Notes: a model not told the origin generated them from the sequence alone. DNA of 64,000 bases from an uncultured Erysipelothrix sp. (GCA_964479585.1 CAYZMP010000003.1:5045-69044), one strand, 5' to 3'; positions 3,363 through 46,666 are shown, numbered from the stretch's first letter. A program made the numbers and translations.

Positions 3363-4124
3363 TCACCCCCTTTCTAATAATGCCACAAATGTTTGCATCA
3401 TCATGGTAATAAAGACAATAGTAACTCCAAACAACGGCAACATCCCCCACCATTGTTTCATTTGAGATTGACTATCTTGATTGTCAAGACGTTGTTCACG
3501 TAGCCATTTTGATGTAGAAGCAATCATGCGATTAAGTTGTTTCATTGAATCTTCTTTACCTACACTGTTGTATCGATAAAGTAGTTTCATTGCTCGTTCA
3601 ACTTCAACACATTCATAATCCTCTAAAAACCCAATATATGTTAACAAATTCTGTGGATCCAAACGTAATTTCTCAATAAAACTTAACAAATGATTTTGAA
3701 TTAACACTGGTGCAAAGTGATGTGATTTTTGTAAGGAAACAACCACAGTATTGTTTTGCAATAATATTTGAAGTTGTCTTAACCAAATTGGAAACTCATA
3801 TTTTAATTGTTTAACTTTTTTATTGAACTCCGATTTAAGTCGAAAGTATGGCATTTTATAAACCACTATAGCAACCACTACCCAAATAAGCACATACAGT
3901 AACTCCCACTGATAGTAAATGGAAAGAACGACAAGCAGTACAATAGATAGTGAGTGAAGTAGTCGCCGATCCTGAAATTTCTCTGATGACTTGTTGCTTG
4001 TCATTTTTAGCAATTGATCTACGTCATTTTCTTTGACTAAATGTGAGAGCACATCTCTGTTAATCATTAACAACACCCACACAAGTAAAATGCTCCCTAT
4101 TAGGATGATTTTTTCCACAAACAC
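3363..4124 (-). CDS. TadC-like inner-membrane pilus platform protein (T2SS-F family)
   Basis: About 250 aa polytopic membrane protein directly after the tadB-like gene and the TadA ATPase. The likely real start is GTG at 4118, 7 nt after AAGGAGA. Family assignment rests on context and topology. Confidence 0.55.
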   Translation of the reverse strand: MFVEKIILIGSILLVWVLLMINRDVLSHLVKENDVDQLLKMTSNKSSEKFQDRRLLHSLSIVLLVVLSIYYQWELLYVLIWVVVAIVVYKMPYFRLKSEFNKKVKQLKYEFPIWLRQLQILLQNNTVVVSLQKSHHFAPVLIQNHLLSFIEKLRLDPQNLLTYIGFLEDYECVEVERAMKLLYRYNSVGKEDSMKQLNRMIASTSKWLREQRLDNQDSQSQMKQWWGMLPLFGVTIVFITMMMQTFVALLERG

Positions 4125-4969
4125 TCTCCTTTAGAAATCCAGCTCTCCTTTAAAAATCTGTAGACCATCATCATAGTAAATAAGATGATAAGTAAAAATA
4201 CAAAGATTACATTATGGTAAATTTGGTGTGTTTTTAATTCCATAAATGCTTTAAGCATAGTTTGATTAAACATTGCAATGATGATAGAGAGCATACATAA
4301 TGTAAGGATTTTATTTTTCATTTGATGTAGTGACATAACATGTAAATGAGTGTCTTCAATCCAATCATCAATATCATCTTCTAACAGCTCAACAGCCTCT
4401 TTGCAATCGTCTACACCGTACATTTCCGCTGAAGTAATCCAAGTTTGAATGTTATATACAATAAAGTGTGGATACTTTGATGCAATAACGTCAAACGCTT
4501 TTGCTGCATCTCCACTTTCTTCCAATACGTCAATCGCATTATCTACCAAAGTTTTAAGTTCATCTTTTGCATATTCTTTGCTTTCATACAACGCTAATAG
4601 GACTTTGTTGGATGATTTAAAATGAGCTAGAAAGTGTTGAAGAAAGGATGTTATTTGCTCATAATCACTTGCGTGATAACGATACTGAAGTTGCCATAAA
4701 AGAAAGACAGGATAGCTTATCCAAGTAAACATTAGTAATAGTACAATATAGTCTTTCGGCAAATAAAATAGTAATGATAATACAATGATAATAATGCTAA
4801 GCATTGTTAACATAAAGCATTGGTATTTTAGACTAAAGACAAAATTATTCTTAACATAAATTCTTTTGATGGAAGATATCTTCCCTTTAAAAAGATAGGA
4901 TAGCGGGATATCACTTTTTACTAATAAAACAAAGACAACAATTGCCACACCACTAATCATCCATCTCAT
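4100..4969 (-). CDS. TadB-like inner-membrane pilus platform protein (T2SS-F family)
   Basis: 289 aa: N-terminal TM helices, a central soluble helical segment and C-terminal TM helices. Overlaps the ATPase stop by 4 nt. Confidence 0.55.
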   Translation of the reverse strand: MRWMISGVAIVVFVLLVKSDIPLSYLFKGKISSIKRIYVKNNFVFSLKYQCFMLTMLSIIIIVLSLLFYLPKDYIVLLLMFTWISYPVFLLWQLQYRYHASDYEQITSFLQHFLAHFKSSNKVLLALYESKEYAKDELKTLVDNAIDVLEESGDAAKAFDVIASKYPHFIVYNIQTWITSAEMYGVDDCKEAVELLEDDIDDWIEDTHLHVMSLHQMKNKILTLCMLSIIIAMFNQTMLKAFMELKTHQIYHNVIFVFLLIILFTMMMVYRFLKESWISKGECLWKKSS

Positions 4970-5973
4970 GAGCTTTTAATCCTGTTTTCATAGAGTTTCT
5001 TTTTTTCGCTTAGTTTTTCTGGAAGTACATCAATCATCTCAGTGGTGTCTTCATGCTTATAAATCGTCGTGTACAGTGGTTTATCCCCTTTAATCTCATA
5101 AACAATAACTTCTTTTATGTATCGTTTTATCCCTTTTTTACTTATGCTTGCTTCAATGTGGATGCCCACATCTATAACATCACAAATCATTTGATTTAAC
5201 ACCTCATTACTTAACTCAACCCCAGGAAACATATGGAGTAATCGTCTTGGTATGTGTCTTGCTGAAGGAGCATGAATGGTACTCAGTAAATTGGCTCCTG
5301 TAGAAACACTTTGAAATAAGTTAACAACTTCTTTACCTCTAACTTCTGAAACTAGCATCCAATCTGGTCGTTGTCTTAAACAAGCTTTAATAGCTGCAGG
5401 ATAATCAAACCGATCATTCACTTTTAGTGACACACAATCCGACTTAGGATGTAAATCTGCATATCTAAGTTCATAGGTATCTTCAATGGTAATAACACGT
5501 TGATTAGCTTCGATATATTGTGATAAATACTTTACTAATTCGGTCTTTCCAGCTCCTGGTAAACCACTTACAATAATGTTGCATTTTATCTTGACACATT
5601 CTATTAAGAACTTAATAACCCACATAGGAGCATAATTTTGTCTTTTTAATAAACGATCATTTAATCGCATTACCGTAGGTGTCTTTCTAATTGATATACT
5701 AATTTTTTTGCACACACTACTGTGTATCAAGCTGATTCTAAGTTGATCTGTTTCTGCTTCTACTACAGGAGAAACAGCATTAAATGTTAAATTAGCATAG
5801 TTGGCAAAGCGATATCCAATTTGCATGCATTCATGATGTTGATCAAAATCATTGATCATGTATCTTCCTTTTTTTAAATGGTCTACCCACAATTGTTCAC
5901 CATTGTAATTAATGTCGGTAATGTAATCATCTTCAATGTATGGATTTAAGACTGTGAAGTCAAAATCATTCAT
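4966..5973 (-). CDS. TadA/CpaF-type secretion ATPase (type II/IV secretion NTPase)
   Basis: Walker A SGLPGAGKTE, Asp box ITIEDTYEL, Walker B RPDWMLVSEVRG and His box STIHA. 335 aa. Confidence 0.85.
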   Translation of the reverse strand: MNDFDFTVLNPYIEDDYITDINYNGEQLWVDHLKKGRYMINDFDQHHECMQIGYRFANYANLTFNAVSPVVEAETDQLRISLIHSSVCKKISISIRKTPTVMRLNDRLLKRQNYAPMWVIKFLIECVKIKCNIIVSGLPGAGKTELVKYLSQYIEANQRVITIEDTYELRYADLHPKSDCVSLKVNDRFDYPAAIKACLRQRPDWMLVSEVRGKEVVNLFQSVSTGANLLSTIHAPSARHIPRRLLHMFPGVELSNEVLNQMICDVIDVGIHIEASISKKGIKRYIKEVIVYEIKGDKPLYTTIYKHEDTTEMIDVLPEKLSEKKKLYENRIKSS

Positions 5974-6676
5974 ATAAATAACTCCAAATTATTGATGATT
6001 CATTTATTATCGCTTCCTGATTTGGTGGCTCATTTAACAATACTGGTACTAAATCAAAACTACCTTTGTTTTCTGCCAAATAAAAGGAGTTAGCATCTTT
6101 ATGATTCAAAGAAAGCAATATAACATGTGGTGTCTTTTGACTTTGTGGATGATTCATGTCTAGACCATACCGATCCTTTAGTGCTAAGATACGAACGTTT
6201 TTATATATAGTATCCACAATTGGATTCTCATTTCGAACAGGATAGGTATACACTAAATCAACATATTGCCCAGGTAATAATGTATTTCCTAATGACTTAA
6301 TAACATCAACACTTAATGATACTGCTACTTGATTTTCTTTTAAGCGTAGTAAAGGTGCATCGTTACTTTTTATTGGATCATCAAGTGCTTCCTTAAAAAA
6401 GAACATTCCTTGATAAATACTAGAGTCATATGAAACAACCTGACCGATAATGTCTTCTTTACTTGTAAAAATGTTGTTTGGTATTAAATTACTCGGTAAT
6501 GATATTGTTTGAATGTCGTCTTCGGTAATAGGATTTCTTGGGACAAGTGTTGTTTTCGCAACATAGACATCTGTACTTTTTGTTAGTGTTTTAACGATGA
6601 GAAACGATACACTAACATTGATTGCAATCATTAAAGCAATACTAATTACAATTATTGATTTCTTTTTATTATTCAT
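5966..6676 (-). CDS. CpaB/RcpC-like Flp pilus assembly protein (N-terminal TM anchor plus SAF-like domain)
   Basis: ORF 5966..6682. The ATG at 6676 lies 6 nt after AGGAGA. N-terminal anchor SIIVISIALMIAINV, then a VPRNPITEDDI...IIGQVV SAF-like segment. It sits immediately upstream of tadA, as in tad loci. Confidence 0.6.
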   Translation of the reverse strand: MNNKKKSIIVISIALMIAINVSVSFLIVKTLTKSTDVYVAKTTLVPRNPITEDDIQTISLPSNLIPNNIFTSKEDIIGQVVSYDSSIYQGMFFFKEALDDPIKSNDAPLLRLKENQVAVSLSVDVIKSLGNTLLPGQYVDLVYTYPVRNENPIVDTIYKNVRILALKDRYGLDMNHPQSQKTPHVILLSLNHKDANSFYLAENKGSFDLVPVLLNEPPNQEAIINESSIIWSYLYE

Positions 6677-7034
6677 AGTCAATCTCCTGAATCATGGTTT
6701 CATCAGAGGTGATAAAAATCGGGAAATAGGAACTCATGTTTTTAACGTTTACTGATACACGTATAAGTAGTGGATGATGATTAAATCCCATTAAATGCCA
6801 ACTTGCTTCATCATACTGATTTACTGATGTAGAAAAGTATTCACCAAATAGGTTAAATGCTGTTTTTGAATCACACGACATGGTCAAGCATGTGTTCATT
6901 GTAGAACGTAAAGATTGTTTGTGCGCTCTTACAACTTGATTTCTAGTGTGTTCAAAATTAAACAACCATATCATTGATCCAATCATAATCATTAACAAAA
7001 TCCATAACACTGCACTCATGATAATCCCTTTCAT
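6669..7034 (-). CDS. membrane-anchored protein of unknown function; first gene of the tad-like operon
   Basis: 121 aa. N-terminal helix MSAVLWILLMIMIGSMIWLF. GAGGTGA RBS. Overlaps the cpaB-like start. Confidence 0.45.
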   Translation of the reverse strand: MKGIIMSAVLWILLMIMIGSMIWLFNFEHTRNQVVRAHKQSLRSTMNTCLTMSCDSKTAFNLFGEYFSTSVNQYDEASWHLMGFNHHPLLIRVSVNVKNMSSYFPIFITSDETMIQEIDYE

Positions 7035-7058: not shown

Positions 7059-7088
7059 AAAAAAAAACAACATGTTCCTACATGTTGT
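7059..7088 (-). terminator. rho-independent terminator after the Ca2+/Na+ antiporter gene
   Basis: Minus strand ACAACATG-TAGGAA-CATGTTGT followed by a T8 run. Confidence 0.7.
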
Positions 7089-8026
7089 TACAAAATTGTT
7101 TGAATTATATAAAATAAATAGCTTACGATGAGTAATACACCTTGCCATCGATAGAAGCGTTTTTTAAACAAGGATGGAATAATGGTAATCACCATAAACC
7201 ATAATGAGAAAGGAATATCAACACTTATTGTCTCTGGACGTGTTATTAGTTGACCTGAAGAAGCTATAACCGATGCTGGTATCGCAAAACTCATGTTTAA
7301 GACATTAGCACCAATAATGTTCCCAATGGATAACCCTGATTCTTTTTTAATAAGTGCCATTATCGTCGTAACAAACTCTGGTAAGGATGTCCCTAATGCG
7401 ACTATCGTTAATCCTACAACTGCTTGTGGTACCGATAAAATCTCAGCTAACTCACTAGCACTACTTACAAGCAGTTCAGCACCAACCACAACCATTATTG
7501 CACCAAGTAAAAAAAGAATGATTTGCTTTTTCGTGTTTGTTGGTTGTACTTTTTCAATCGGATTGTCTTCTTGATCTTTAACTTCAAGCAAATTTAACCA
7601 TAAAAATCCTACAAGCATAACCCATAAAATGATACTTTCTTGATTAGATAAAATTAAGTCTCTCATTAAAACAAGTGATATGAGAGTTAATCCGATCATG
7701 AAAAATCCTTTTTGAAAGACACCTCTACTTACATTTTTTGAAGGAGAAACGGATAATGAAATTCCTAGTATTAATCCTAAGTTAGCAATAACTGAACCAA
7801 ATGCATTACCGATAGCTAAATCCACATTACCTACAGAAGATGCAAGCACTGAGACTAAGACCTCTGGTAAAGTGGTTGCTAAAGAGACAATAGTGGCACC
7901 AATAATAAAACTTGGTATCCCAGTGATTTTTGCAACATAAACTGCTGCATCTACAAACCAGTCTCCACCTTTAATGATTAAAATAAATCCTACAATTAAC
8001 CAAAATACTAACAAAAGAATATCCAT
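7088..8026 (-). CDS. Ca2+/cation antiporter (CaCA / YrbG family sodium-calcium exchanger)
   Basis: Two internally repeated halves, each with an alpha-repeat (GATIVSLATTLPE and LTIVALGTSLPE). Start moved to the ATG at 8026, which follows AAGGGGA. Confidence 0.85.
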   Translation of the reverse strand: MDILLLVFWLIVGFILIIKGGDWFVDAAVYVAKITGIPSFIIGATIVSLATTLPEVLVSVLASSVGNVDLAIGNAFGSVIANLGLILGISLSVSPSKNVSRGVFQKGFFMIGLTLISLVLMRDLILSNQESIILWVMLVGFLWLNLLEVKDQEDNPIEKVQPTNTKKQIILFLLGAIMVVVGAELLVSSASELAEILSVPQAVVGLTIVALGTSLPEFVTTIMALIKKESGLSIGNIIGANVLNMSFAIPASVIASSGQLITRPETISVDIPFSLWFMVITIIPSLFKKRFYRWQGVLLIVSYLFYIIQTIL

Positions 8027-8136: not shown

Positions 8137-8445
8137 TTATGGTTTTATATTTGTTGCTTTTCCTTTTTCCTTAAAATATTCTTTAAGATACTCAGCAATT
8201 TTTACTCGTGTTTCTTGATTAGAAGGTTTACACAATGACACAGACTCTGCATCTTGATCAATAAAGGCTTCCGCTAATCCAGCACAGCCTGGATAACCAC
8301 AAGCACCACAATTAAGTCCCGGTAACATTGTCATAACATCATCAAACGCCGGATCTGGTTCAACATAAAACCTTTCAGATGCGTATCCAAGGCCAACACC
8401 CAATAAAGCACCGAGTGCTAACATAATAAGAACTGATTCAATCAT
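8137..8445 (-). CDS. rnfB: RnfB, truncated form: TM anchor plus N-terminal Fe-S domain only, no 4Fe-4S ferredoxin domains
   Basis: 102 aa. TM helix, then ..FYVEPDP..LPGLNCGACGYPGCAGLAEAF...LCKP, the RnfB N-terminal Cys cluster. The ORF then ends, and no CxxCxxCxxxCP motifs are present. Confidence 0.75.
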   Translation of the reverse strand: MIESVLIMLALGALLGVGLGYASERFYVEPDPAFDDVMTMLPGLNCGACGYPGCAGLAEAFIDQDAESVSLCKPSNQETRVKIAEYLKEYFKEKGKATNIKP

Positions 8446-8446
8446 A

Positions 8447-8623
8447 TTACACTACACTCCCTTCTTGACGTTGATTGGGATGCAAAGCACATGATGCAAT
8501 AGCACATCCGTTACAACTTTGTGTTAAATCTTCACACCCTTCTGGTACAGGTGTTTTATGATTTAAGAAATACACTCCTGCATAAAATAATACTAACGCT
8601 CCTGCAAATAACAACGGTTCCAT
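8447..8623 (-). CDS. small Cys-rich single-pass membrane protein (58 aa) encoded between rnfA and rnfB
   Basis: Not in the ORF track. Own translation: MEPLLFAGALVLFYAGVYFLNHKTPVPEGCEDLTQSCNGCAIASCALHPNQRQEGSVV. Its ATG overlaps the rnfA stop (TAATG), and its stop lies 1 nt before the rnfB ATG. Confidence 0.55.
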   Translation of the reverse strand: MEPLLFAGALVLFYAGVYFLNHKTPVPEGCEDLTQSCNGCAIASCALHPNQRQEGSVV

Positions 8624-9195
8624 TAAACGATTCCTGCCAATCCACTAAATGCAAGTGCCATTAACGCAGCAACAATCATAGCGATTGGATTACCTTTAAA
8701 TGGTAATGGTGTTTCAGCAAAATCAAGTCGTTCTCTAATAGCTGAGAACAAGAATAACACTAAGGTAAAACCTACAGGAACAGCAATGGCGTGTGTTAGC
8801 ATTTCAATAAAATCAAACCCCTGAGCAATGTTTTGTAACGCTACAAATAGAACTGCACAGTTGGTCGTAATTAGAGGTAAAAAGATACCTAATGATTTAT
8901 ACAACTTTGGAGAAAACTTTTTAATAATTAATTCTGTTAATTGAACAAATGATGCAATAACTAAAATAAATGTAATTAATTGCATGTATTCAAGTCCACG
9001 TGGCTCTAAAATTAAGTGGTAAATTCCATAGGTAACAAGAGATGCACCTAACACTACAAAGGTAACTGCTCCACCCATACCAACAGCAGAGCTTGTTTTT
9101 CTAGAAACACCCATAAATGGACATACGCCTAAGAAACGACTTAAGACGATGTTGTTAATAAATATGGCTGAAATAAATAGTGCGAATAGTTCCAT
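8623..9195 (-). CDS. rnfA: Rnf electron transport complex subunit A
   Basis: 190 aa. MELFALFISAIFINNIVLSRFLGVCPFMGVS is the canonical RnfA/NqrE N-terminus. Confidence 0.92.
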   Translation of the reverse strand: MELFALFISAIFINNIVLSRFLGVCPFMGVSRKTSSAVGMGGAVTFVVLGASLVTYGIYHLILEPRGLEYMQLITFILVIASFVQLTELIIKKFSPKLYKSLGIFLPLITTNCAVLFVALQNIAQGFDFIEMLTHAIAVPVGFTLVLFLFSAIRERLDFAETPLPFKGNPIAMIVAALMALAFSGLAGIV

Positions 9196-9196
9196 A

Positions 9197-9847
9197 TTAT
9201 TTCACCTCTTTCGTACTTACTTTTGATGCTTCTTTTTGTTTATACGCTTCAAAAGCTGCTGCGATTAGAGCAAAGGTAATAAATGCTCCCGCAGGTTGGT
9301 TAAACATTGATATTGTAAACTCACTTGGAATGATACTTAAATCAAAGATAACTGCTTGATTAAACGGATTCACTAAGTTCAGTCCACCAGTCGCAATTAA
9401 CTGACGAATAGAAGCTAAAATGACCAAGCTAAATGTAAATGCTAAGCCCATTCCAACACCATCAATGGCTGAATCAACAACTTTATTTTTAGAAGCAAAT
9501 GACTCTGCACGCCCTAAAATAATACAGTTAACAACAATTAATGGAATAAATACACCTAATGCGGCATATAATTCTACTGTAAATGCTTGCATGATCATTT
9601 CGACCATCGTAACTAGTGTTGCAATAATAACAATATAAACTGGAATGCGAACATCCATTGGTGTAATTTTTCTTAACAAAGAAACCATAACATTAGCAAT
9701 AGTGAGTACAACAATAACCGCTGCTCCCATACCTAATGCATTGTTTAATGTTGTCGAAATCGCCAAGGCTGGACACAAACCAAGATACAATGCAAATGCT
9801 GGGTTTTCTTTTATAAATCCCTTTTTGAAATTTTCAAATTTATTCAT
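9197..9847 (-). CDS. rnfE: Rnf electron transport complex subunit E
   Basis: 216 aa. ..NPAFALYLGLCPALAIST.. is the RnfE/NqrD signature. Confidence 0.92.
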   Translation of the reverse strand: MNKFENFKKGFIKENPAFALYLGLCPALAISTTLNNALGMGAAVIVVLTIANVMVSLLRKITPMDVRIPVYIVIIATLVTMVEMIMQAFTVELYAALGVFIPLIVVNCIILGRAESFASKNKVVDSAIDGVGMGLAFTFSLVILASIRQLIATGGLNLVNPFNQAVIFDLSIIPSEFTISMFNQPAGAFITFALIAAAFEAYKQKEASKVSTKEVK

Positions 9848-9857
9848 GGTTTGCCTC

Positions 9858-10796
9858 CTATTCTTCTAAACCAATTGCAGCGCGAACGGCACGAGCTGCA
9901 GATACTGCTGTGACTGTTGCGCCTGCAACAGCATCAATAGAAATTTCACTATCTGTAATATCTAAACCAACAAATTGATCAAAGAACTCTTCATCATCAA
10001 TTTTGTCACCAATACCCGTTGTATCATTCATCTCTACTAATTTAACAGAAACAATAGTATTGTCTGCTGTGTTGATAACTACTTCAAAGATGTTTGGCTC
10101 TGCATCTTCATATCCACCTTCTAAGACAGCATATCCACGAGATGAAACAACGTATGTAACTACATCTCCATCTGCAGACTCTTCCAAAATCTCACCAGCT
10201 ACACGCTCTGTTTGATTTGTGAAAATTCCAACACTTGCACCAAATTGAATTGGTGGTGTTTCAATTACAGCTCCTGAACCATCATCTTCAATTCCTTGAG
10301 ATTCATTAAATAACGTTTTCGCTGCATTAATACCATTAACAACAGCTCCCGATGTTACAGTTGCGCCAGATAATACTGGAATTCCTTCTGTGGTTGATTT
10401 ACCAATGACATTATCAGAAAACTCAGGGTTTTCAATACGATCACCAATACCTGGTGTATCATTCAAATCTAAAACTTGAAACCCAATAATTTCTGCATCA
10501 TCAGATATGCCTACCATAAATACGATTGGATTAGCATACCCTTGCACTTCTACTTTGTATGCCATCCCAGATCCTACTGCCTCATAAACTCCAACAACAA
10601 GACCACTTTCATCTTCAAAGTCTTCAATAATTAAAAACTCATCAGTGTCTGGGAATATTAGCTCTAAGTTTGCACGCTCACTAGCAATTGCATTTTCAGC
10701 AATAATTGGTGCTGTAATATTGTTAACAGCAGAAAGTGCACCACCAGCTAGTGCAGCAACAATCGCTAAAAACAATCCAATTTTTAATACTTTCAT
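9858..10796 (-). CDS. rnfG: Rnf subunit G with two tandem FMN_bind modules
   Basis: ORF 9858..10841. The start ATG at 10796 follows AAGGAGG. N-terminal anchor, then two FMN-binding modules ending in LSGATVTS and DAVAGATVTA (ApbE flavinylation motifs). 312 aa against roughly 200 for typical RnfG. Confidence 0.85.
   Translation of the reverse strand: MKVLKIGLFLAIVAALAGGALSAVNNITAPIIAENAIASERANLELIFPDTDEFLIIEDFEDESGLVVGVYEAVGSGMAYKVEVQGYANPIVFMVGISDDAEIIGFQVLDLNDTPGIGDRIENPEFSDNVIGKSTTEGIPVLSGATVTSGAVVNGINAAKTLFNESQGIEDDGSGAVIETPPIQFGASVGIFTNQTERVAGEILEESADGDVVTYVVSSRGYAVLEGGYEDAEPNIFEVVINTADNTIVSVKLVEMNDTTGIGDKIDDEEFFDQFVGLDITDSEISIDAVAGATVTAVSAARAVRAAIGLEE
9861..10247 (-). repeat. paralogous FMN_bind module, copy 1 (C-terminal domain of RnfG)
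   Basis: Protein about 60 percent identical by eye to the RnfD C-terminal module (shared SSRGYAVLEGGY.DAEPNIFEV, DNTIVSV, VEMNDT). DNA stretches such as acttcaaagatgtttggctctgcatcttcatatccaccttctaa recur nearly unchanged at 11030-11075. Confidence 0.8.
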
Positions 10797-10797
10797 G

Positions 10798-12315
10798 TTA
10801 TTCGCCTCCTTGTAGTGCATCAATGGCGGTTCTAACTGCACGATTTGCAGAAACAGAAGTCATTGTAGCACCAGCAACGGAATCAACTGTAATACTATCA
10901 TCATCAAAGGATAATCCTTCATATTGTTCTAAGTAAGTTGTTGTATTAATAGGATCACTAATACCAGGAGTATCGTTCATCTCTACTACAACAACAGACA
11001 CTATTGTATTATCGGATGTGTTTAATGCAACTTCAAAGATATTTGGCTCTGCATCATCATATCCACCTTCTAATACTGCATAACCTCTAGAAGAAATTGT
11101 ATATGTAATCACATCACCATCTTCACTTTGATTTACAACCTCACCAGCAACACGTGCGGTGATATCATCAAATATTCCAATTGGTTCTCCAAAGTTAACA
11201 GTAATATCACCATTATCTCCGTTATCTCCATTAGAAGGATCTTCAGCTGCTACAGCTTCCATTTGTGTCGCTACACCACCCATCAGTAACATGCCAACAA
11301 CTAGTGTAACCACAAAAGCTGTAATATACTTTTTCTCTTTTTCATATTGCCAACCATCGGTAAATCTTTCGATTGTTGGTGTTAAAATGTTCATTAATAA
11401 GATGGAATACACAACTCCACCTGGAAGATTTGCTTGTACACGAATTAAAACGGTAATAATTGCAGCCCCAACTGCAAAGATAATTCTTCCTGAAGCTGAT
11501 GTAGGGTTTGTAACTGGATCTGTTAGCATAAAAACTGCTCCAAATACAGCTCCACCTGCAATTACATGATATGTTGGATACCAAATGCCAACACCATGGA
11601 CAAGTGCAATAACCCAAGCTAATACGAAAATTGTTCCTAAATAGAATACTGGTATACGCCAATCAAGAACTTTTCTAAAGGCTAAGATAGCACCAACAAC
11701 AAGTAGAAGTAGTGCACTTGTTTCACCTAATGCTCCAGGATACCATCCTACAAATAAATTAAACAATCCACCGAAACTTTCTAAGAAAGCTTCTGTAGCA
11801 ACTGCATCGGTGATTAACCAGCCACGTTGAGCAATAGAAGCAATTGGTGTTGCAGATGTCGTTAAGTCAGCAGCTACACGACCTGCAAAAGCAGTTAAGA
11901 TTACAGTACGACCTACTGCAGCTGGATTAAAAATATTATGACCAAATCCACCAAACAATAGTTTACCAATTAATATAGCAAACACAGTTCCAACACCCAT
12001 AGCATAAAAAGTCATGTTAATTGGAACCATTAATACTAGTATAATCGCTGTTACCCAAGGAAATGATCCTTGTAAATGTTTGCCAATTGGCTTTTTAAGA
12101 ACTAGACACCAAAGAACTTCAGTGACTAAAGACACCCCTACCGCTGTTGCAAACAACAACAGTGCGTGGATAACATAACTCATATCATATTCAACATAGT
12201 AGTAAGCTAAGCTGAAAATAAACACAGCAAGCAACCCAAGGGTTAGTTCAAACATGATGTTTTGAGTTGATTGTCTAATACGTTGATTTGGTGACACTCT
12301 AAATGTAAATTTCAT
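10798..12315 (-). CDS. rnfD: Rnf subunit D fused to an extra TM helix and a C-terminal FMN_bind domain
   Basis: 505 aa. The RnfD/NqrB core has the DLTTSATPI flavinylation site and TDPVT. It is followed by the helix YITAFVVTLVVGMLLMGGVA, an NGDNGDNGD linker and an FMN_bind module ending in DSVAGATMTS. Confidence 0.85.
   Translation of the reverse strand: MKFTFRVSPNQRIRQSTQNIMFELTLGLLAVFIFSLAYYYVEYDMSYVIHALLLFATAVGVSLVTEVLWCLVLKKPIGKHLQGSFPWVTAIILVLMVPINMTFYAMGVGTVFAILIGKLLFGGFGHNIFNPAAVGRTVILTAFAGRVAADLTTSATPIASIAQRGWLITDAVATEAFLESFGGLFNLFVGWYPGALGETSALLLLVVGAILAFRKVLDWRIPVFYLGTIFVLAWVIALVHGVGIWYPTYHVIAGGAVFGAVFMLTDPVTNPTSASGRIIFAVGAAIITVLIRVQANLPGGVVYSILLMNILTPTIERFTDGWQYEKEKKYITAFVVTLVVGMLLMGGVATQMEAVAAEDPSNGDNGDNGDITVNFGEPIGIFDDITARVAGEVVNQSEDGDVITYTISSRGYAVLEGGYDDAEPNIFEVALNTSDNTIVSVVVVEMNDTPGISDPINTTTYLEQYEGLSFDDDSITVDSVAGATMTSVSANRAVRTAIDALQGGE
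10801..11193 (-). repeat. paralogous FMN_bind module, copy 2 (C-terminal extension of RnfD)
   Basis: See copy 1. The alignment covers GEPIGIF...AGATMTSVSANRAVRTAI against GASVGIF...AGATVTAVSAARAVRAAI. Confidence 0.8.
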
Positions 12316-12318
12316 GTT

Positions 12319-13614
12319 TTACGCCCCTTTCCTTAGTTGTAATGCTTTTTTAGCACGTTTAACACCTTCGGTTACATCTAAACGTGATGGACATACATAA
12401 GAACATAATCCACATTCGATACATTGATCAGCACGAAGTTGTGCAATAAGATCAACATTTTTTGTTTCTTCTGCATTGTTTATACGTACTGGCAACAATC
12501 CTGCTGGACAGTAGTCGTTACATTTACCACAACGTAAACAAGCAATTGGATCTAAAGGTTTTGTTTTTAATATTGTGATTGCATTGGTGTATGGAGTTAC
12601 AACAAATTGATCATTAACAATCGTTTTCCCCATCATTGGTCCACCAGCGATACAACTAATTTGTTCGCCTGTATAACCACCAAGTTGAGCTACAATATCG
12701 GATGTTGGTGTACCAACAGCCACAAATACATTAGAAGGTTTTGAAACACCATCACCACTTACGGTAACCATTTTATATGTTGGTGTTTCACCTTTTGTTA
12801 ATGCTTGACCAAAAGCGATGGCTGTCGTTGCATTATTAACAACCAAGCCTAACTCACTTGGTAACTTGTCATAACGTTTTTTAAATATTTGATAAACCAG
12901 TGTTCTTTCCCAACCCATTGGATACACATCTGGTACTGCTTTAATTTCAATAGTTGGATAATTTTCAACAGCTTTCTCTAATTTTGCAATTAAAGCCTTT
13001 TTTGTCTTTTTAACAGAAATCATTGCTTTTTGAGCCTGTGCCATTTTTATCATCGCAGAAGTACCTACAAGTAAATCCTCTAAGTAGTTTTCCATCATTC
13101 GATAATCAGCAGTAATATATGGTTCACACTCAACACCGTTAATAACGATGGTATGAATATCTTTTGCGAATTTATATTTAATATAAGATGGGAATCCAGC
13201 TCCTCCCATTCCTACTATTCCTGCATTCATCATAAAATCAATTAATTCTTCACGAGAAGCACTTTCATAGTTTACTGGTTCTAATGTTTGAGCTTTCTCA
13301 TTTTGTCCATCATTTTCAATTACGATATGGTCTATAGGTTTTAAAGAAGCATGCATTACTTTCTTAATGCCCTTTACTACACCTGAGACTGGCGAGAACA
13401 ATGGTACTGTAAAATTATCGTTTCTAACTGCAAGCTTTGTGTTCACAAAAACACGGTCATTTTCTTTCACTAATACTTCGAAACTTGTAGAAAGTCCGTT
13501 TATTAATGGGATGTAGACCGTCTTAGGAGCTTGTATAGTTACGATATCATTGTAGTTGGTCAACTCCTTATGTCCATCGACATGTAATTGGCTTGGACCG
13601 ATCCATACTGACAT
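12319..13614 (-). CDS. rnfC: Rnf subunit C (NADH-binding, two 4Fe-4S clusters)
   Basis: ORF 12319..13671. The ATG at 13614 follows AGGTGG and gives MSVWIGPSQLHVDGHKELT, matching the usual RnfC N-terminal spacing. Contains GMGGAGFP, CLRCGKCNDYCP and CIECGLCSYVCP. Confidence 0.9.
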   Translation of the reverse strand: MSVWIGPSQLHVDGHKELTNYNDIVTIQAPKTVYIPLINGLSTSFEVLVKENDRVFVNTKLAVRNDNFTVPLFSPVSGVVKGIKKVMHASLKPIDHIVIENDGQNEKAQTLEPVNYESASREELIDFMMNAGIVGMGGAGFPSYIKYKFAKDIHTIVINGVECEPYITADYRMMENYLEDLLVGTSAMIKMAQAQKAMISVKKTKKALIAKLEKAVENYPTIEIKAVPDVYPMGWERTLVYQIFKKRYDKLPSELGLVVNNATTAIAFGQALTKGETPTYKMVTVSGDGVSKPSNVFVAVGTPTSDIVAQLGGYTGEQISCIAGGPMMGKTIVNDQFVVTPYTNAITILKTKPLDPIACLRCGKCNDYCPAGLLPVRINNAEETKNVDLIAQLRADQCIECGLCSYVCPSRLDVTEGVKRAKKALQLRKGA

Positions 13615-13815
13615 AAATCCACCTAATCCTTTCCTATTAAATACAGTTGAAATATGCAAAACACTTGACATGTTAACATTTTATTTCTAACTTATTATAA
13701 CACAGAAATGTTAGAGTGAAAGCTACGTTTTGACGTTTTTATAATTTTTTCACAAATCAACTTATTTTAGATTTTATGCATTTTATTAAGAATAATATTA
13801 ATCTACAATAAGCTA

Positions 13816-13824
13816 TGATATAAT
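13816..13824 (+). promoter_or_regulatory. extended -10 promoter element for apbE
   Basis: TGATATAAT (TGnTATAAT) lies 15 nt upstream of the apbE ATG region, followed by a GGTGA RBS. Confidence 0.5.
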
Positions 13825-13839
13825 GACGGCGGTGATAAA

Positions 13840-14970
13840 ATGAAAAGAATTATTGTTGGCTTTATGAGCCTTTTACTTATATTAAGTGCATGTACTCCCA
13901 CTCAACGTAGTGAGTATCAACGATTTGATCAATCGACTTTTGATGCTGGGTTTGATACGGTCATACGTTTAATTGCTTATACAAAAGATAGACAAGAATT
14001 TGATGATTATTTTGAACAAATGACCATTGATTTCTTTTATCTCAACACGTTATTTGATAAGTACAATGATTATGAAGGCATTAATAATATTAAAACAATC
14101 AACGATAATGCTGGGGTTGCTCCAGTTGAAGTTGATCCATTTATTATTGATTTATTAAAAATGAGTAAATATTGGTATGATAATGGCGAACAATTAATGG
14201 ATGTCACTTTTGGTGCTGTATTAAATATATGGCATGACTATCGTGAATTAGGATTAGCTGAAAACAACGATGGTAACGGTGGACCAATTCCTTCAGTTAA
14301 TATTTTAGAAGAAGCTGCACAGTGTACTGGTTTTGAGTTTTTAGAAATTAACGAAGAAGAGAGCACGGTATTTCTAACACAACCATGTGCTTCATTAGAT
14401 GTCGGTGCAACAGCAAAAGGATATGCAACGGAAGTAGTCGCAAGAAGTCTTGAGTCTGCTGGAATGAAGTATGGTTTGCTTAGTGCAGGTGGAAATGTTC
14501 GTAGTATTAATACTCGTGATGATGGTGAAGCTTGGGGTGTAGGTATCGAACTTCCTGAAATGTTTTCACAACGTTCTGCAGACACACTTCGGATCCCATC
14601 TTCAATATCTATTGTGACTAGCGGTGACTATCAACGATACTATGAAGGTGTTGATGGCAATCGATATCACCATTTAATTAATCCAAGAACGTTGTTTCCC
14701 GAATCATATTTCCATAGTGTAACTGCTGTAACAGAAGATTCTGGTATTGCGGATGCATTATCAACTATTTTATTTTTAATGGATTATGATGAAGGAATTA
14801 ACTTCATTAATAAAATACAATCTGAGAATCCTGACGAGCTTATTGGTGCATTTTGGATTTTCCATAAAGACCAAGAAGCACCTACAAATGCAATTATTGC
14901 AGAAAGTGAAGGATATATGGTCGCTATAACAGAGTCCTTAATCCCTTACTCTCGAGTTTTTAATCCATAG
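13840..14970 (+). CDS. apbE: ApbE-family FAD:protein FMN transferase, lipoprotein
   Basis: Signal peptide with lipobox LLILSAC. ApbE-like core (..DVGATAKGYA.., ..AGGNV.., TSGDYQRY, HHLINPRT, ADALST). Divergent from rnfC. Confidence 0.88.
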   Translation: MKRIIVGFMSLLLILSACTPTQRSEYQRFDQSTFDAGFDTVIRLIAYTKDRQEFDDYFEQMTIDFFYLNTLFDKYNDYEGINNIKTINDNAGVAPVEVDPFIIDLLKMSKYWYDNGEQLMDVTFGAVLNIWHDYRELGLAENNDGNGGPIPSVNILEEAAQCTGFEFLEINEEESTVFLTQPCASLDVGATAKGYATEVVARSLESAGMKYGLLSAGGNVRSINTRDDGEAWGVGIELPEMFSQRSADTLRIPSSISIVTSGDYQRYYEGVDGNRYHHLINPRTLFPESYFHSVTAVTEDSGIADALSTILFLMDYDEGINFINKIQSENPDELIGAFWIFHKDQEAPTNAIIAESEGYMVAITESLIPYSRVFNP

Positions 14971-14981
14971 GAGTAAAGTTT

Positions 14982-16952
14982 ATGAATAAAAAGACATTTG
15001 TATATTGGATTTTGTATTCATTATCCTTTATTTATACAGAGACACTCTTTGTTGTTTTAAGCGAGTTTAGTTTTTTCTCCATCAGTAGAGTTCGAATGCT
15101 TTTATTTGTCTTAAGTTTTAGTTTACTACTCGCAATTATCACTAGTTTACTGCCTAAAAAAATAGCTGGATTGTTTTTGTTTTTCACATTATTTTTGTAC
15201 TCGTTTTATGTTCTGTTTCAATCTTCCTTTTATGATTACATGGGATATTACTTAAGTGTAAATACTGCAAAAACAACAGCTGGAAATGTCAGTGAGTTTG
15301 TGTTGGATTTTATTAGAGCTATCCAACCTTTGTACTTATTGTATTTTGTGCCTCTTATTGTTTTGTTTTTATCCATTAAAACTAAGTTTCTTATTCTACC
15401 TACGTGGAAGGTTTCAATAAAACAGACTTTTACTTCCATTCTACTGTTAGTGCTTGTTCACTTTCTTTCTTTAGGAAGTTTATATATTTTACATAACCCT
15501 ACACAAATGTATACGCCAGTAGAGTTGTATAAAAATCCTGCTCAATCTTTTTTAGCCATTCAAGAGCTTGGTGTAAATCGATATGGTGTTCGAGATTTTT
15601 GGACTTTGTTTAATGGCAATGACAATAACCCTGTGATTGTAGATCCTACAATTCCTAATGATGATACACCAATTGACCAACCTGAGCCTGAAGATGATTT
15701 TGATAGAGTAGTTTTAACCGACAAATGGAAAGAGCTGCGAGATAATGAGACAAACTCAAGAATCAAGCAAATTGATGATTATTTATTGGCAAAAGATATA
15801 GTACCAAAAAATGACAAAACCGGGTTGTTTAAAGATAAAAATCTCGTGTTTATTATGGTTGAAGCTTTGGATTATATGGCTATTCATCCTGAGTTAACAC
15901 CAACATTGTATTCAATCACTACAGAGGGATGGCATTTTAACAACCATCATGCTGTTCGAGCATCATGTACAACAGGAGAAAGTGAGTTTATGGGTCTTCT
16001 TTCCATCATACCTTCTGTTTCAGTATGCTCACCTTATGAATACGCTGATAATGAATATACGTTGTCCGCCTTCAATTTATTTAAAGATAATGGGTATTCG
16101 GTGTCTTCATACCATAGTTATTTTGATCAATTTTATCCAAGAAGTGAGTGGCATGAGAATATGGGGAGTGAGTTTTATCATAGTGATCACATGGATATTC
16201 AAGTCCTACAAGGATGGCCAAGTGACTACAATCTATTTGAAGAGTCATATAAGAAAATAAGAACTTATTCTGAACCTTTTATGTCATTTATCACTACTGC
16301 TGCTATGCATTTTCCATATGATGCTGATTCGGTGCTTGGTAATCGTTACTTGCAAGAAGTAAATCAAGTGTATCCTGATGCTCCTATCGAAGTTAAAAGG
16401 TATTTATCAAAAGCAATTGATTTTGACAAAGGCTTAGCACGACTATTTGAGTTATTAAAGGAAGATGGGAAGTTTGATGACACTGTATTTGTACTATATG
16501 GTGACCATCATCCATTTCGTATGAATGGAAACTTCATTAACCAATATACAGCTGATATTGACCGTTTTGATGGTTTCAACATGGATTTAAATCCTTTGCT
16601 AATATACAACAGTGAAATTGAGGCGAAAACTTATTCAATGTTAAGTTGGCAAATTGATTTGTTGCCAACTATTGCTAATCTTTTTGATTTAGATTATGAT
16701 CCACGATTGTATATGGGAAAAGATTTGTTTGATTCAAACGATAACATTATCATATTTACAAATAGCAGTTGGAAAACAAACAAAGGGAATTTCTACGCAA
16801 CCACACAACAATTTATCCCTAATAATGAAAACAACACTTACACTACCGAAGAAATTGTGGCCATCAACCAATTTGTTAGAAATCAGTTTTTAATTAGTGA
16901 GGAAATACTTGATACTGATTACTACGCTTACCGTAAAGAAATTATTCCATAA
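14982..16952 (+). CDS. LtaS-family polyglycerolphosphate (lipoteichoic acid) synthase / sulfatase-domain membrane protein
   Basis: 656 aa. About five N-terminal TM helices, then an extracellular sulfatase-type domain (VFIMVEALD, ..TTGESEF.., YGDHHP). Confidence 0.75.
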   Translation: MNKKTFVYWILYSLSFIYTETLFVVLSEFSFFSISRVRMLLFVLSFSLLLAIITSLLPKKIAGLFLFFTLFLYSFYVLFQSSFYDYMGYYLSVNTAKTTAGNVSEFVLDFIRAIQPLYLLYFVPLIVLFLSIKTKFLILPTWKVSIKQTFTSILLLVLVHFLSLGSLYILHNPTQMYTPVELYKNPAQSFLAIQELGVNRYGVRDFWTLFNGNDNNPVIVDPTIPNDDTPIDQPEPEDDFDRVVLTDKWKELRDNETNSRIKQIDDYLLAKDIVPKNDKTGLFKDKNLVFIMVEALDYMAIHPELTPTLYSITTEGWHFNNHHAVRASCTTGESEFMGLLSIIPSVSVCSPYEYADNEYTLSAFNLFKDNGYSVSSYHSYFDQFYPRSEWHENMGSEFYHSDHMDIQVLQGWPSDYNLFEESYKKIRTYSEPFMSFITTAAMHFPYDADSVLGNRYLQEVNQVYPDAPIEVKRYLSKAIDFDKGLARLFELLKEDGKFDDTVFVLYGDHHPFRMNGNFINQYTADIDRFDGFNMDLNPLLIYNSEIEAKTYSMLSWQIDLLPTIANLFDLDYDPRLYMGKDLFDSNDNIIIFTNSSWKTNKGNFYATTQQFIPNNENNTYTTEEIVAINQFVRNQFLISEEILDTDYYAYRKEIIP

Positions 16953-16981
16953 AAAACTGCTCAATATCATTAGCAGTTTTT

Positions 16982-17854
16982 TTATTGTGCTAAGAATTCT
17001 TCATAAGTACAATTACACTCATAAATTTTCGCTGCTAATTCTTTACCTACAAATCGAAAATGCCAAGGTTCATGTATATATCCTGTGATATGCGTTTTAT
17101 TTTGTGGATATCTTAGAATAAAGCCAAAGTGATGAGCATTTTGACTTAACCACTTCCCTTCCTCTGTATTACCAAACTGATGACTAATTCCACCAATTTC
17201 AGCTGAGGATAAATCAACTGCTAGTCCTGTTTGATGTTCACTATGACCAGCTCGAGCACTGTAAGTATCAGCTGAAGTTTGACCATTTCGACTTACGTAG
17301 TTTTGATAAATAGTTGCTTGTGTATTATAACTTCGATACGCTGATACAATGACAATGATGTAACCGTGTGTTTCTTTTGCACTTAAAATCATCTCACTTA
17401 ATGCATAATAAGCCACATCCCTTAAATAGTGCTTACGGTTGTCTAATTGATACATCGTTGACAATACTAAATTATTGGGGACATAATCACTAGGAAGTTG
17501 GTTTTGCTTGTTAACTAAAACATCTATTGTAGCTGGGTTACTTATTAGTTGAATATGTTGATAAAATGGGTCTTCGTACGACTTGTTTTCATTTTTTTCT
17601 CTTGCAATACGTTCTTGCTGTTCACGAATTTTTTTATCTTGCAACAAACGTTCTTGTCGTAAGAATTCTTGTTGATTATTATACTCAATTCTTTGTTGAA
17701 TATCGTTTTTATACTCTTTAATAGGCTTAATTAGTTCGAAACTTCGTTTAGGAAAAAGCGATTTATCCACGATATATTTTTGTTCATCTTTATTTTGTGT
17801 ACAACTAAAAAGTGCTGCTACGACAATCACTATTACGATCCATCTTTGTCTCAT
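16982..17854 (-). CDS. D-alanyl-D-alanine carboxypeptidase, VanY/M15B family, lipoprotein
   Basis: Lipobox ALFSC. SAYRSY, SEHQTGLAVD and EPWHFRF zinc-peptidase motifs. Confidence 0.85.
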   Translation of the reverse strand: MRQRWIVIVIVVAALFSCTQNKDEQKYIVDKSLFPKRSFELIKPIKEYKNDIQQRIEYNNQQEFLRQERLLQDKKIREQQERIAREKNENKSYEDPFYQHIQLISNPATIDVLVNKQNQLPSDYVPNNLVLSTMYQLDNRKHYLRDVAYYALSEMILSAKETHGYIIVIVSAYRSYNTQATIYQNYVSRNGQTSADTYSARAGHSEHQTGLAVDLSSAEIGGISHQFGNTEEGKWLSQNAHHFGFILRYPQNKTHITGYIHEPWHFRFVGKELAAKIYECNCTYEEFLAQ

Positions 17855-45241: not shown

Positions 45242-45267
45242 AAAAACAATCGCATATGCGATTGTTT
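45242..45267 (-). terminator. terminator of the suf operon
   Basis: Palindrome AACAATCGCATATGCGATTGTT followed by a T-run on the minus strand. Overlaps the sufB stop. Confidence 0.65.
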
Positions 45268-46666
45268 AACCAATAGAACCTTCCATTTCTAAACGAAGAA
45301 GCTGATTCAACTCAACAGCATATTCCATTGGTAATTCTCTTGTAAACGGCTCTAAAAACCCCAATATTATGGTCTCAGCTGCTTGTTCTTCTGTTAACCC
45401 TCTTGACATTAAATAGAATAGTTGTTCTTCCGATATCTTAGACACCGATGCTTCATGTTCAACAATTGATTGATTGTTACTTACAATATTAGTTGGTAAT
45501 GTATCACTAGTTGACTGATCATCTAAAAGTAATGTATCACATTCAATCTTCGATTTAGCTCCTATAGCTGATGGTGTGTGTTTAATCATTCCTCGATAAT
45601 TTACAGAACCTGAATTTCTAGCAATAGATTTAGAAATAATTGTGCTAGAAGTGTTTGCTCCAGTATGAATCATTTTTGCTCCAGCATCAAGAATCTGATT
45701 TTTTCCAGCAACTGCGATAGATATGGTCAACCCACGAGCATATTCTCCAACAAGTACACAAGAAGGATATTTCATGGTTATGCTTGAACCAATATTTCCG
45801 TCTATCCACTCCATTACACCATGATCAAGAACTTTTGCACGCTTGGTAACAAGATTCAATACATTTGTTGACCAGTTTTGAACAGTAGTATATCGACATT
45901 TCGCATTTTTATGCACAATAATTTCGACAACTGCAGCATGTAATGAATCCTTTTGATAAATAGGTGCTGTACACCCTTCAACATAATGAACATCAGCACC
46001 TTCATCAACAATGATTAATGTTCTTTCAAACTGACCCATGCTCTCACTATTAATTCTAAAATAAGATTGTAATGGTTTATCTAAACTTACCCCAGGAGGA
46101 ACATATATAAATGATCCACCAGACCAAACCGCACTATTTAATGCAGCAAACTTATTATCATAATAAGGTACAACAGTTCCGAAAAACTTCTTAAACAACT
46201 CAGGATGTTCCCTTAAAGCAGTGTCTGTATCCAAGAATATTATTCCCTTATCCTCTACCTCTTTTAACATGTTATGATATACAACCTCTGAATCATACTG
46301 TGTAGAAATTCCTGATAAAAACTTCTGTTCTGCTTCAGGTAATCCTAACTTGTTAAACGTGTCCTTTATAGTATCTGGAACGTCATCCCAGCTTTTTTCA
46401 CTACGCTCACTTGGCTTAATATAGTATGTATATTCATCAAAATCTATACCAGATAAATCAGCACCCCACTCTGGCATTTTTTTGTCTGCAAAAGCTTCGT
46501 AAGACTTCACACGAAACTCTCTCATCCAATCAGGTTCTCCCTTTATTTTCGAAATTTCTTCAACAATCTCTTTAGAAATTCCCTTTTTAGTTCTATATAT
46601 ACTGACATCTTTATCAGCAAACCCATATTTATATTCATCTTTTGGGATATTAATATTATCAGTCAT
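45266..46666 (-). CDS. sufB: Fe-S cluster assembly scaffold SufB
   Basis: Start at ATG 46666 ([16 protein letters not shown]). YVPPGV, IIVDEGA..HYVEGC and the conserved C-terminal SRGL.EE.A motif. Confidence 0.93.

Follow-up and report, generated by a model that had tools for sequence, protein, structure and literature searches.

In a 64,000-nucleotide stretch of DNA from an uncultured Erysipelothrix sp. (GCA_964479585.1 CAYZMP010000003.1:5045-69044; here called the window), we find an operon for an Rnf complex whose subunits RnfG and RnfD carry, beyond the canonical flavin sites, two further modules of the flavin mononucleotide (FMN)-binding FMN_bind type, with a gene for the flavin transferase ApbE beside it. 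The operon is an Erysipelotrichales-type multi-flavinylated Rnf, an ordinary member of a large uncharacterized clade and not a singular oddity. We favor, with moderate confidence, the reading that the two extra flavins would form a side branch to extracytoplasmic partners, a function inferred from the gene and genome comparisons described below.

All six Rnf subunit genes lie in one operon on the minus strand, in the order rnfC-D-G-E-A-(58-amino-acid open reading frame)-B. The reading frame of rnfG (9858-10796) begins with an ATG at 10796, preceded by the ribosome-binding site AAGGAGG, and encodes 312 amino acids. Two FMN_bind stretches were detected in RnfG both by Pfam and by a purpose-built FMN_bind hidden Markov model (HMM) made from 126 modules (E values of 8e-41 and, for the second module, 1e-35). 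The N-terminal anchor helix and the first module, G1, occupy residues 1 to 166 (10299-10796), with T146 at codon 10359-10361, and the second module, G2, occupies residues 178 to 312 (9861-10265), with T294 at codon 9915-9917. Since residues 4 to 162 align with residues 7 to 180 of the 189-amino-acid RnfG of Clostridium tetanomorphum, we regard G1 as the canonical RnfG and G2 as an addition.

RnfD (505 amino acids; 10798-12315, minus strand) is extended in a similar manner. Its canonical core (residues 1 to 328; 11332-12315) matches PF03116 over residues 6 to 320 (E 3e-74), and residues 3 to 320 align with residues 7 to 302 of the 310-residue C. tetanomorphum RnfD, and this alignment takes in the flavin site TTATP, with which T156 of the window motif DLTTSATPI (codon 11848-11850) coincides. 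Foldseek comparison of the core with the solved chains 9eri_D, 8ahx_D and 7zc6_D gave target-normalized TM-scores of 0.76 to 0.85. The alignment reaches to 8 residues before the end of the C. tetanomorphum protein, and the window chain then continues into an extra transmembrane helix (residues 329 to 352; 11260-11331; Kyte-Doolittle score, 2.34), which is preceded by KEKK and followed by an acidic stretch, then into an acidic disordered linker containing NGDNGDNGD (residues 353 to 374; 11194-11259), and finally into a fused FMN_bind module, D3 (residues 375 to 505; 10801-11193), with a predicted flavinylation site at T484 (codon 10864-10866). Within D3, PF04205 matches RnfD residues 427 to 498 (E 7e-9; 36.7 bits against a cutoff of 22), and the purpose-built HMM gives an E value of 6e-32. 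These results bear out an earlier preliminary description of the locus, which had read the same lengths, modules, motifs, helix and linker in RnfG and RnfD; the Pfam scan that it proposed as a check does call the extra regions of both proteins FMN_bind.

A single-chain AlphaFold2 (AF2) model of RnfD, built with 74 homologues (mean predicted local distance difference test [pLDDT] score, 77.8), agrees with this division. It shows a helix at residues 327 to 351, disorder at 356 to 371 (pLDDT below 50) and a beta-rich fold of the FMN_bind type at 375 to 501, in which D3 reaches pLDDT values of about 70 to 87 and T484 sits at the N terminus of the last helix, where RnfG has its flavinylated Thr. 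Foldseek matched the C-terminal domain to NqrC chains at a probability of 1.0. In the cryo-electron microscopy structure of the C. tetanomorphum complex, the last 10 residues of RnfD are cytoplasmic and lie on RnfC (PMC9588780). With a cytoplasmic canonical C terminus and a single extra helix flanked by positive charges on its N-terminal side and by negative charges on its C-terminal side, D3 should be placed on the outer face of the membrane, a well-founded placement that upholds the proposal that the helix flips the fused domain outward. The tether of D3, a helix followed by the domain, has the same predicted N-in, C-out topology as the RnfG anchor.

The two extra modules are more closely related to each other than to the canonical one. 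G2 and D3 are 63% identical in an alignment of 126 residues (E 4e-57), compared to 33 to 39% between G1 and either of them (33% for D3), and judged by their sequences they are paralogues whose resemblance is not due to chance. Four predicted acceptor threonines are present in all: RnfD T156, RnfG T146, RnfG T294 and RnfD T484. The published substrate motif of ApbE is D-x-x-[S/T]-G-A-[S/T], and an Asp-to-Ala change is reported to be tolerated (PMC12052999). In the window, the motifs read IPVLSGATVTS in G1, where Pro takes the place of Asp (PVLSGAT) and the acceptor Thr is present, IDAVAGATVTA in G2 and VDSVAGATMTS in D3. Among the related loci described below, the acceptor residue is kept in 74 of 75 RnfD-fused modules, in 32 of 33 extra RnfG modules (31 Thr and 1 Ser) and in both RnfE-fused modules; when more than 100 extra modules from relatives that are 30 to 85% identical are taken together, about 97% have the acceptor Thr and a D-x-x-x-G-A-T core. 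These figures argue for selection on the extra modules to retain the flavin site. The conservation of the site, the tethering of modules to any of three subunits and the variation of their number from 0 to 5 on a single RnfD in operons that are otherwise identical together lead us to predict that the extra flavins are redox-active.

The enzyme that would attach these flavins is encoded next door. apbE (13840-14970, plus strand; PF02424, E 8e-57, 193 bits) is divergent from rnfC across a spacer of 168 bp, and the N terminus of its product, MKRIIVGFMSLLLILSAC, contains the lipobox LSAC of a lipoprotein signal, as had been described. Both the ApbE-family domain and the signal peptide that places it outside the cytoplasm are thus found in the same protein. 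A divergent apbE upstream of rnfC is also found in most Erysipelotrichaceae loci. This adjacent lipoprotein would attach the flavins, outside the membrane, at all four sites, and for the extra modules we infer such flavinylation from their motifs.

The fusion is widespread among relatives. The source organism is an uncultured relative of Erysipelotrichaceae, and the nearest relatives that bear a name are Erysipelothrix sp. metagenome-assembled genomes. Among the 120 best RnfD matches in a database of 5.8 billion proteins, 118 carry PF03116 together with PF04205, the other two being recorded with PF03116 alone, and some relatives are about 618 amino acids long, with two extra modules. A scan of genomes, one per species, yielded more than 590 RnfD relatives, and the 80 best loci, the window excluded, were analyzed with phmmer and the purpose-built HMM. 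The window type, with one extra module on RnfD and two modules in RnfG, is seen in 13 of these 80 loci, its carriers including metagenome-assembled genomes (MAGs) of Erysipelotrichaceae, Anaerorhabdus, Proteiniclasticum ruminis and Youngiibacter fragilis; the canonical type, with no extra on RnfD and one module in RnfG, is seen in 16 (for example, in Holdemanella and Merdibacter). RnfD without an extra module is also combined with RnfG of two (6 loci) or three modules (4 loci), and in 2 loci no extra was detected on RnfD and no rnfG was found. One extra module on RnfD further occurs with a single-module RnfG (5 loci), with a three-module RnfG (1 locus) or without a separate rnfG (12 loci). Two extra modules on RnfD accompany an RnfG of one (7 loci) or two modules (3 loci; Solobacterium) or no separate rnfG (7 loci), and three accompany a single-module RnfG in 2 loci. 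In the last two loci, RnfE bears an extra module as well, together with a single-module RnfG and two extras on RnfD in Dielma fastidiosa or one in Traorella. The extra modules are thus shuffled among the C termini of RnfD, RnfG and RnfE in different genera, and the fusion architecture is common in the Erysipelotrichales and in some Clostridia.

The longest RnfD fusions have 872 amino acids with 4 modules and 855 with 5. The operon of the former (locus L082) has the frame of the window's: ApbE, then RnfC, RnfD (872 amino acids), RnfG (310 amino acids), RnfE, RnfA, the small open reading frame, RnfB (90 amino acids) and RcpC. The 855-amino-acid RnfD-family protein with five FMN_bind domains (L081, 9182-11749) directly follows tatA/tatB/tatC on a 12-kb contig, with no rnfC upstream of it, and may be a stand-alone system of RnfD and a flavin wire. 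The two RnfE fusions (366 to 369 amino acids; L009, 9384-10484, in D. fastidiosa, and L018 in Traorella) carry a C-terminal helix and an FMN_bind domain with the motif SGAT. A clear extra helix was recognized in 41 of 55 RnfD or RnfE fusions, the check being confounded in the rest by HMM envelopes that overlap the helix. In 'Bacilli'/RF39-like MAGs (L050 to L071), there is no separate rnfG, an RnfD-FMN_bind protein with one or two modules is the sole FMN_bind carrier, and the small Cys open reading frame is absent as well; here the fusion apparently replaces RnfG. RnfD proteins of 380 to 395 amino acids are encoded in Holdemanella (L025/L026, 7001-8143) and Merdibacter (L017, L020). The 380-amino-acid Holdemanella protein (L025) keeps the extra helix, followed by about 20 residues and no FMN_bind domain, which looks like secondary module loss, in genera that are also without secreted flavin reductases. 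RnfD proteins of 564 to 627 amino acids (L062, L074 to L076) have long C-terminal extensions that the FMN_bind HMM did not detect; those of L062 and L074 show SAGAT- or SGAS-like motifs beyond an extra helix. The extensions are probably FMN_bind modules that have diverged, and since such modules are missed by the HMM, fusions may outnumber the counts given here.

A neighbor-joining ordering of the modules places most extra-type modules together, apart from the canonical first RnfG module; the modules of loci that have no rnfG cluster separately and fall between these groups. An exhaustive search with D3 among 1.84 billion cluster representatives returned 322 relatives at E values of 0.001 or below, which fall into three groups: double-module RnfGs, RnfD fusions and stand-alone proteins with 5 to 11 FMN_bind domains. 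The nearest relatives of D3 outside Rnf are these multi-flavinylated proteins.

We propose that the core path, coupled to Na+ or H+, would link RnfB and RnfAE on the ferredoxin side with RnfD and RnfC on the NAD side by way of the flavins at the outer face, and that the flavins of G2 and D3 would lead off as a short side branch at the node made by the FMNs of RnfG and RnfD. Electrons delivered by NADH would come in via RnfC and RnfD, those of reduced ferredoxin or flavodoxin via the short RnfB and RnfAE, and both could exit to extracytoplasmic partners such as flavinylated reductases, free flavins or metals; the same branch may carry electrons inward from outside. The Na+/H+-coupled ferredoxin:NAD+ reaction probably still runs alongside. 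A branch is favored because a chain of varying length is hard to fit into a fixed internal path, and it is supported by the acceptor Thr kept in nearly all extra modules, by the four or five modules carried by RnfD in otherwise identical operons, by the kinship of D3 with multi-flavinylated proteins and by a ferredoxin source within the window, the pyruvate:ferredoxin oxidoreductase described below. The preliminary description had likewise suggested an Rnf variant with an extracytoplasmic electron branch. Its anatomy stands, and the function that it suggested is plausible and consistent with the evidence.

A possible set of partners is provided by gut Erysipelotrichaceae, which respire dozens of dietary and host metabolites via secreted flavin reductases (Little et al., bioRxiv 10.1101/2022.12.26.521950). 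Using the counts in the supplement of that preprint, matched to our loci by genus name between two genome sets, we compared the number of flavin reductases with a signal peptide per genome with the number of extra Rnf modules. Holdemania has 34 to 51 reductases and 3 extra modules, Dielma 13 to 26 and 3, Solobacterium 8 to 11 and 2 to 3 in most loci (0 in L035), and Anaerorhabdus 3 and 2. Holdemanella and Merdibacter have neither reductases nor extra modules. Massilimicrobiota, UBA636 and Longicatena have no reductases and 2, 3 and 1 extra modules, respectively, and Erysipelothrix-like genomes have 0 to 1 reductases and 2 extra modules. The association between the two numbers is suggestive, partial and not tight.

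Several observations weigh against a side branch. The last four genera or groups named above have extra modules and at most one signal-peptide flavin reductase. No conserved acceptor or partner gene lies beside the operon, and the HMM, run on all open reading frames of the 64-kb window, found no FMN_bind proteins besides RnfD and RnfG. With linkers of about 20 residues, the flavins would stay within a few nanometers of the complex, which is not enough to bridge a Gram-positive wall. In both G2 (DAVAGAT) and D3 (DSVAGAT), the Thr is kept and Ala stands at position -3, where relatives have Ser or Thr. Finally, our searches of the literature found no biochemical work on any Rnf of this lineage.

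Some of the same observations would suit an ordinary Rnf in which no electrons leave and the extra flavins serve as an internal relay or buffer within the U-shaped ferredoxin:NAD+ path, either bridging RnfAE, RnfG and RnfD, so that RnfG would need to swing less, or storing electrons. Every canonical cofactor site is intact, short linkers would hold the modules beside the complex, extra modules also occur in genera without signal-peptide flavin reductases, and the neighborhood is without a conserved acceptor gene. However, the close relatives Holdemanella and Merdibacter run on the single canonical module, so that the extras appear dispensable for the core cycle, and an internal role leaves the four to five tandem modules on RnfD without a reason and the kinship with proteins of 5 to 11 FMN_bind domains unexplained. 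We consider such a relay the most serious competitor, though rather unlikely.

A less probable account, which we doubt, is that an RnfG-like gene simply became fused in frame to rnfD and that both copies are kept here with no new function. The adjacency of rnfD and rnfG would ease such a fusion, the extra helix and domain run N-in, C-out as in RnfG, and the 19 loci in which an RnfD-FMN_bind protein occurs without a separate rnfG (one module in 12 loci, two in the other 7) indicate that a fused module can serve as RnfG. D3, however, clusters with the extra-type modules rather than with canonical RnfG modules, and its identity to G2 is nearly twice that to G1; moreover, canonical G1 is kept alongside D3, and in loci with a separate rnfG the extras add to the canonical module and never substitute for it. 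That the extra modules are unflavinylated spacers or decaying remnants is very improbable: the Ala at -3 in G2 and D3 and the Holdemanella RnfD, which shows that a module can be lost while the helix stays, would fit such decay, but the near-universal retention of the acceptor Thr and its core motif, and the AF2 fold of D3, speak against it.

Returning to the side branch, a broader proposal can be made, with considerably less confidence than in the branch itself. The Rnf of this lineage may be a distinct quinone-independent, ion-pumping respiratory module, equipped with a short RnfB, a small subunit with four cysteines and an outward chain of flavins that differs in length and is tethered to RnfD, RnfG or RnfE; this module would pass electrons from NADH or ferredoxin to extracytoplasmic acceptors and would be the missing membrane conduit feeding the tens of secreted flavin reductases of gut Erysipelotrichaceae, Holdemania and Dielma among them; the window would then hold its basic version, with two extra flavins. 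The preprint on these reductases (bioRxiv 10.1101/2022.12.26.521950) mentions neither Rnf nor menaquinone and thus appears to leave their membrane electron source open, and a multi-flavin Rnf is a concrete candidate for it. If the proposal is true, a built-in extracytoplasmic exit would tie fermentative redox balance to external acceptors without quinones or cytochromes. Rnf is otherwise regarded as a closed ferredoxin:NAD+ pump.

The remaining subunits are those of an Rnf whose membrane core, as predicted from its genes, looks fully functional. RnfC (12319-13671, minus strand) retains the complete domain set, NADH-side domains included: RnfC_N, the Complex1_51K FMN/NAD domain, SLBB and two [4Fe-4S] clusters (Pfam and TIGR01945, 361.8 bits against a cutoff of 245.95). 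RnfE (9197-9847, minus strand; TIGR01948, 228.7 bits against 213.4) and RnfA (8623-9195, minus strand; TIGR01943, 245.5 bits against 229.3) have exactly two cysteines each, in LGxCP and xNC motifs (C25 and C108 in RnfE; C25 and C113 in RnfA); such pairs ligate an intramembrane [2Fe-2S] cluster (PMC12174285). RnfC, RnfE, RnfA and RnfB all pass their NCBIfam cutoffs. RnfD (195.4 bits against 207) and RnfG (TIGR01947, 100.1 against 102) fall slightly below theirs, probably because of their extra domains. The six-gene operon, the FMN threonines of RnfD and RnfG and the Cys pairs of RnfA and RnfE, all of which mark a complex as Rnf, are present.

RnfB is the exception among these marks. At 102 amino acids (8137-8445, minus strand), with PF04060 as its sole Pfam match and a passing score for TIGR01944, it consists of an anchor helix and the single-[4Fe-4S] 'FdI' domain (ligands C46, C49, C54 and C72). 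It aligns solely to residues 1 to 89 of the solved RnfB chains, which have 174 to 333 residues, and lacks the C-terminal polyferredoxin domain, which in canonical RnfB holds 2 to 7 [4Fe-4S] clusters and accepts ferredoxin (2025 RNF/NQR review, PMC12174285). RnfB is shortened to about 90 to 125 amino acids in 61 of 65 related loci. The genome survey that had been suggested for the RnfD-FMN_bind fusion and a short RnfB did find the two together, and the short RnfB also occurs in operons with a canonical single-flavin RnfG. No conserved ferredoxin-like gene that could be the split-off RnfB domain was found downstream of short rnfB genes; a recurrent gene of about 235 amino acids at that position was considered as a candidate and rejected, as it encodes the Tad-pilus protein RcpC/CpaB. 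Elsewhere in the window, a pyruvate:ferredoxin/flavodoxin oxidoreductase (1170 amino acids; 56506-60018, minus strand) makes it probable that a low-potential ferredoxin or flavodoxin pool exists. SufBD genes lie at 45266-46723 (minus strand). The oxidoreductase and SufBD are consistent with an anaerobe making a low-potential carrier that must be reoxidized.

Between rnfA and rnfB lies an open reading frame of 58 codons (8447-8623, minus strand), which encodes an N-terminal transmembrane helix followed by NHKTPVPEGCEDLTQSCNGCAIASC, with the motif GCEDLx4CxGCx4C (GCE[DN]Lx3-4CxGCx4C when relatives are included). Translational coupling is apparent at both ends: the start codon overlaps the stop of rnfA in TAATG, and the frame's own stop lies 1 nucleotide before the rnfB ATG (TAAtATG). 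Of 61 loci with a short RnfB, 41 have conserved the small frame, canonical single-flavin operons among them, whereas the three loci whose RnfB has at least 268 amino acids lack it; in L082 to L084, the equivalent frame is called by gene callers. Searches of Pfam and NCBIfam gave no match above threshold and no curated family, although two relatives show a weak, subthreshold resemblance to PF12669 (FeoB-associated Cys-rich membrane protein). A word-indexed protein search returned only 3 close relatives, all unnamed, and an identical protein is on public record, also unnamed. A loose precedent is RseC of E. coli, a membrane protein with a CX5CX2CX5C motif that works with the Rsx (Rnf) complex (PMC11729352). 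The 58-amino-acid protein may be an extra, seventh Rnf subunit linked to the loss of the RnfB ferredoxin domain.

As for the neighborhood, a gene of the Na+/Ca2+ exchanger family (PF01699; 7088-8062, minus strand) comes next after rnfB, in the same orientation, and is followed by a strong terminator-like hairpin (7066-7089). In relatives, its place directly after rnfB is taken by the RcpC gene, found there in 16 fetched loci and in L082, a recurrence that points to conserved synteny of rnf and tad. In the window, the Tad/Flp-pilus genes follow the rnf operon at about 3363-6682 (minus strand). They encode RcpC/CpaB (5966-6682), a T2SSE ATPase (4966-5973) and, upstream of these two, probably membrane components. 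On the other side, apbE is adjoined by genes for an LtaS-type sulfatase-family protein (656 amino acids) and a VanY D-Ala-D-Ala carboxypeptidase (14982-17854). These two genes indicate a walled envelope of the Gram-positive type; the place of the extra flavins would then be the space between membrane and wall.

Public annotations call the proteins of this class "RnfD" or "FMN-binding protein". Our literature searches found nothing specific on an RnfD-FMN_bind fusion, a truncated RnfB, the Rnf of Erysipelotrichaceae, or extracellular electron transfer (EET) of Proteiniclasticum in connection with Rnf, and the 58-amino-acid reading frame is not described in the literature searched. The available parts of PMC8238504, PMC10979944, PMC12052999 and PMC12174285 contain no RnfD or RnfE FMN_bind fusion, no RnfB of about 100 amino acids and no Erysipelotrichaceae Rnf. 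In the literature searched, the RnfD and RnfE fusions, the short RnfB and the small open reading frame are thus undescribed; the idea of an electron branch is already published. 

Flavin-based EET of Listeria employs Ndh2, EetA/B, demethylmenaquinone, FmnB and PplA, and the preliminary description had drawn an analogy between PplA/FmnB and the present system. The two have in common an extracytoplasmic lipoprotein of the ApbE family that flavinylates outward-facing FMN_bind domains, predicted in our case, and a Gram-positive envelope, which here is predicted from genes. In contrast to Listeria, the electron source would be Rnf instead of Ndh2 and demethylmenaquinone, and the modules are part of Rnf subunits instead of a separate PplA lipoprotein. 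No genes like those for Ndh2, EetA/EetB, DmkA/B or PplA were found among the 21 window open reading frames run against Pfam, nor was any other EET gene found in the 64-kb window, and the short linkers are unlike a long-range surface array. The analogy therefore holds at the level of function only.

Compared to the canonical Rnf complexes of C. tetanomorphum (7ZC6), Acetobacterium woodii (9ERI) and Azotobacter vinelandii (8AHX), the window operon has the same six subunit genes in the same order, with G1 corresponding to a whole canonical RnfG and with the RnfA/RnfE Cys pairs and the RnfC domain set shared. Its RnfD core shares 35 to 36% identity with the chains of C. tetanomorphum and A. woodii and 31% with that of A. 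vinelandii, and the FMN threonine is conserved. It differs in the two added extracytoplasmic FMN_bind modules, in the missing C-terminal ferredoxin-accepting domain of RnfB and in the added 58-amino-acid 4-Cys reading frame.

The closest published counterpart is the set of RNF clusters with multi-flavinylated RnfG for which Méheust et al. (2021, eLife; PMC8238504) proposed a second pathway to extracytosolic acceptors, so that the earlier electron-branch interpretation of the window restates a published hypothesis. By the features that these authors used, namely, RnfB, a protein with more than one FMN_bind domain (here RnfG) and a secretion or lipidation signal in the cluster (here the lipobox of ApbE), the window operon is a multi-flavinylated RNF cluster; it shares with theirs the RnfG with more than one FMN_bind domain and an ApbE in the RNF cluster. 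The available part of the paper deals with multi-flavinylated RnfG only and does not mention RnfD or RnfE fusions, module shuffling or a short RnfB. The NQR/RNF-like two-subunit systems described in PMC8238504 and PMC10979944 also have an RnfD-family domain with a C-terminal fusion, to NqrF, and are paired with an FMN_bind protein. There, however, the fusion adds PF00175, which is cytosolic, and RnfD has lost its threonine, whereas the window RnfD has an extracytoplasmic PF04205, keeps T156 and stands among six Rnf subunits; PF04205 in place of PF00175 and the retained T156 rule out this class for it. A further likeness is offered by the Rnf of Methanosarcina acetivorans, which, with the multiheme cytochrome MmcA, is believed to divert electrons to acceptors in the membrane or outside the cell (PMC12174285). 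Both complexes would be Rnf with an added redox module, made of hemes on a separate subunit in M. acetivorans and of predicted covalent flavins fused to RnfD and RnfG in the Erysipelothrix window.

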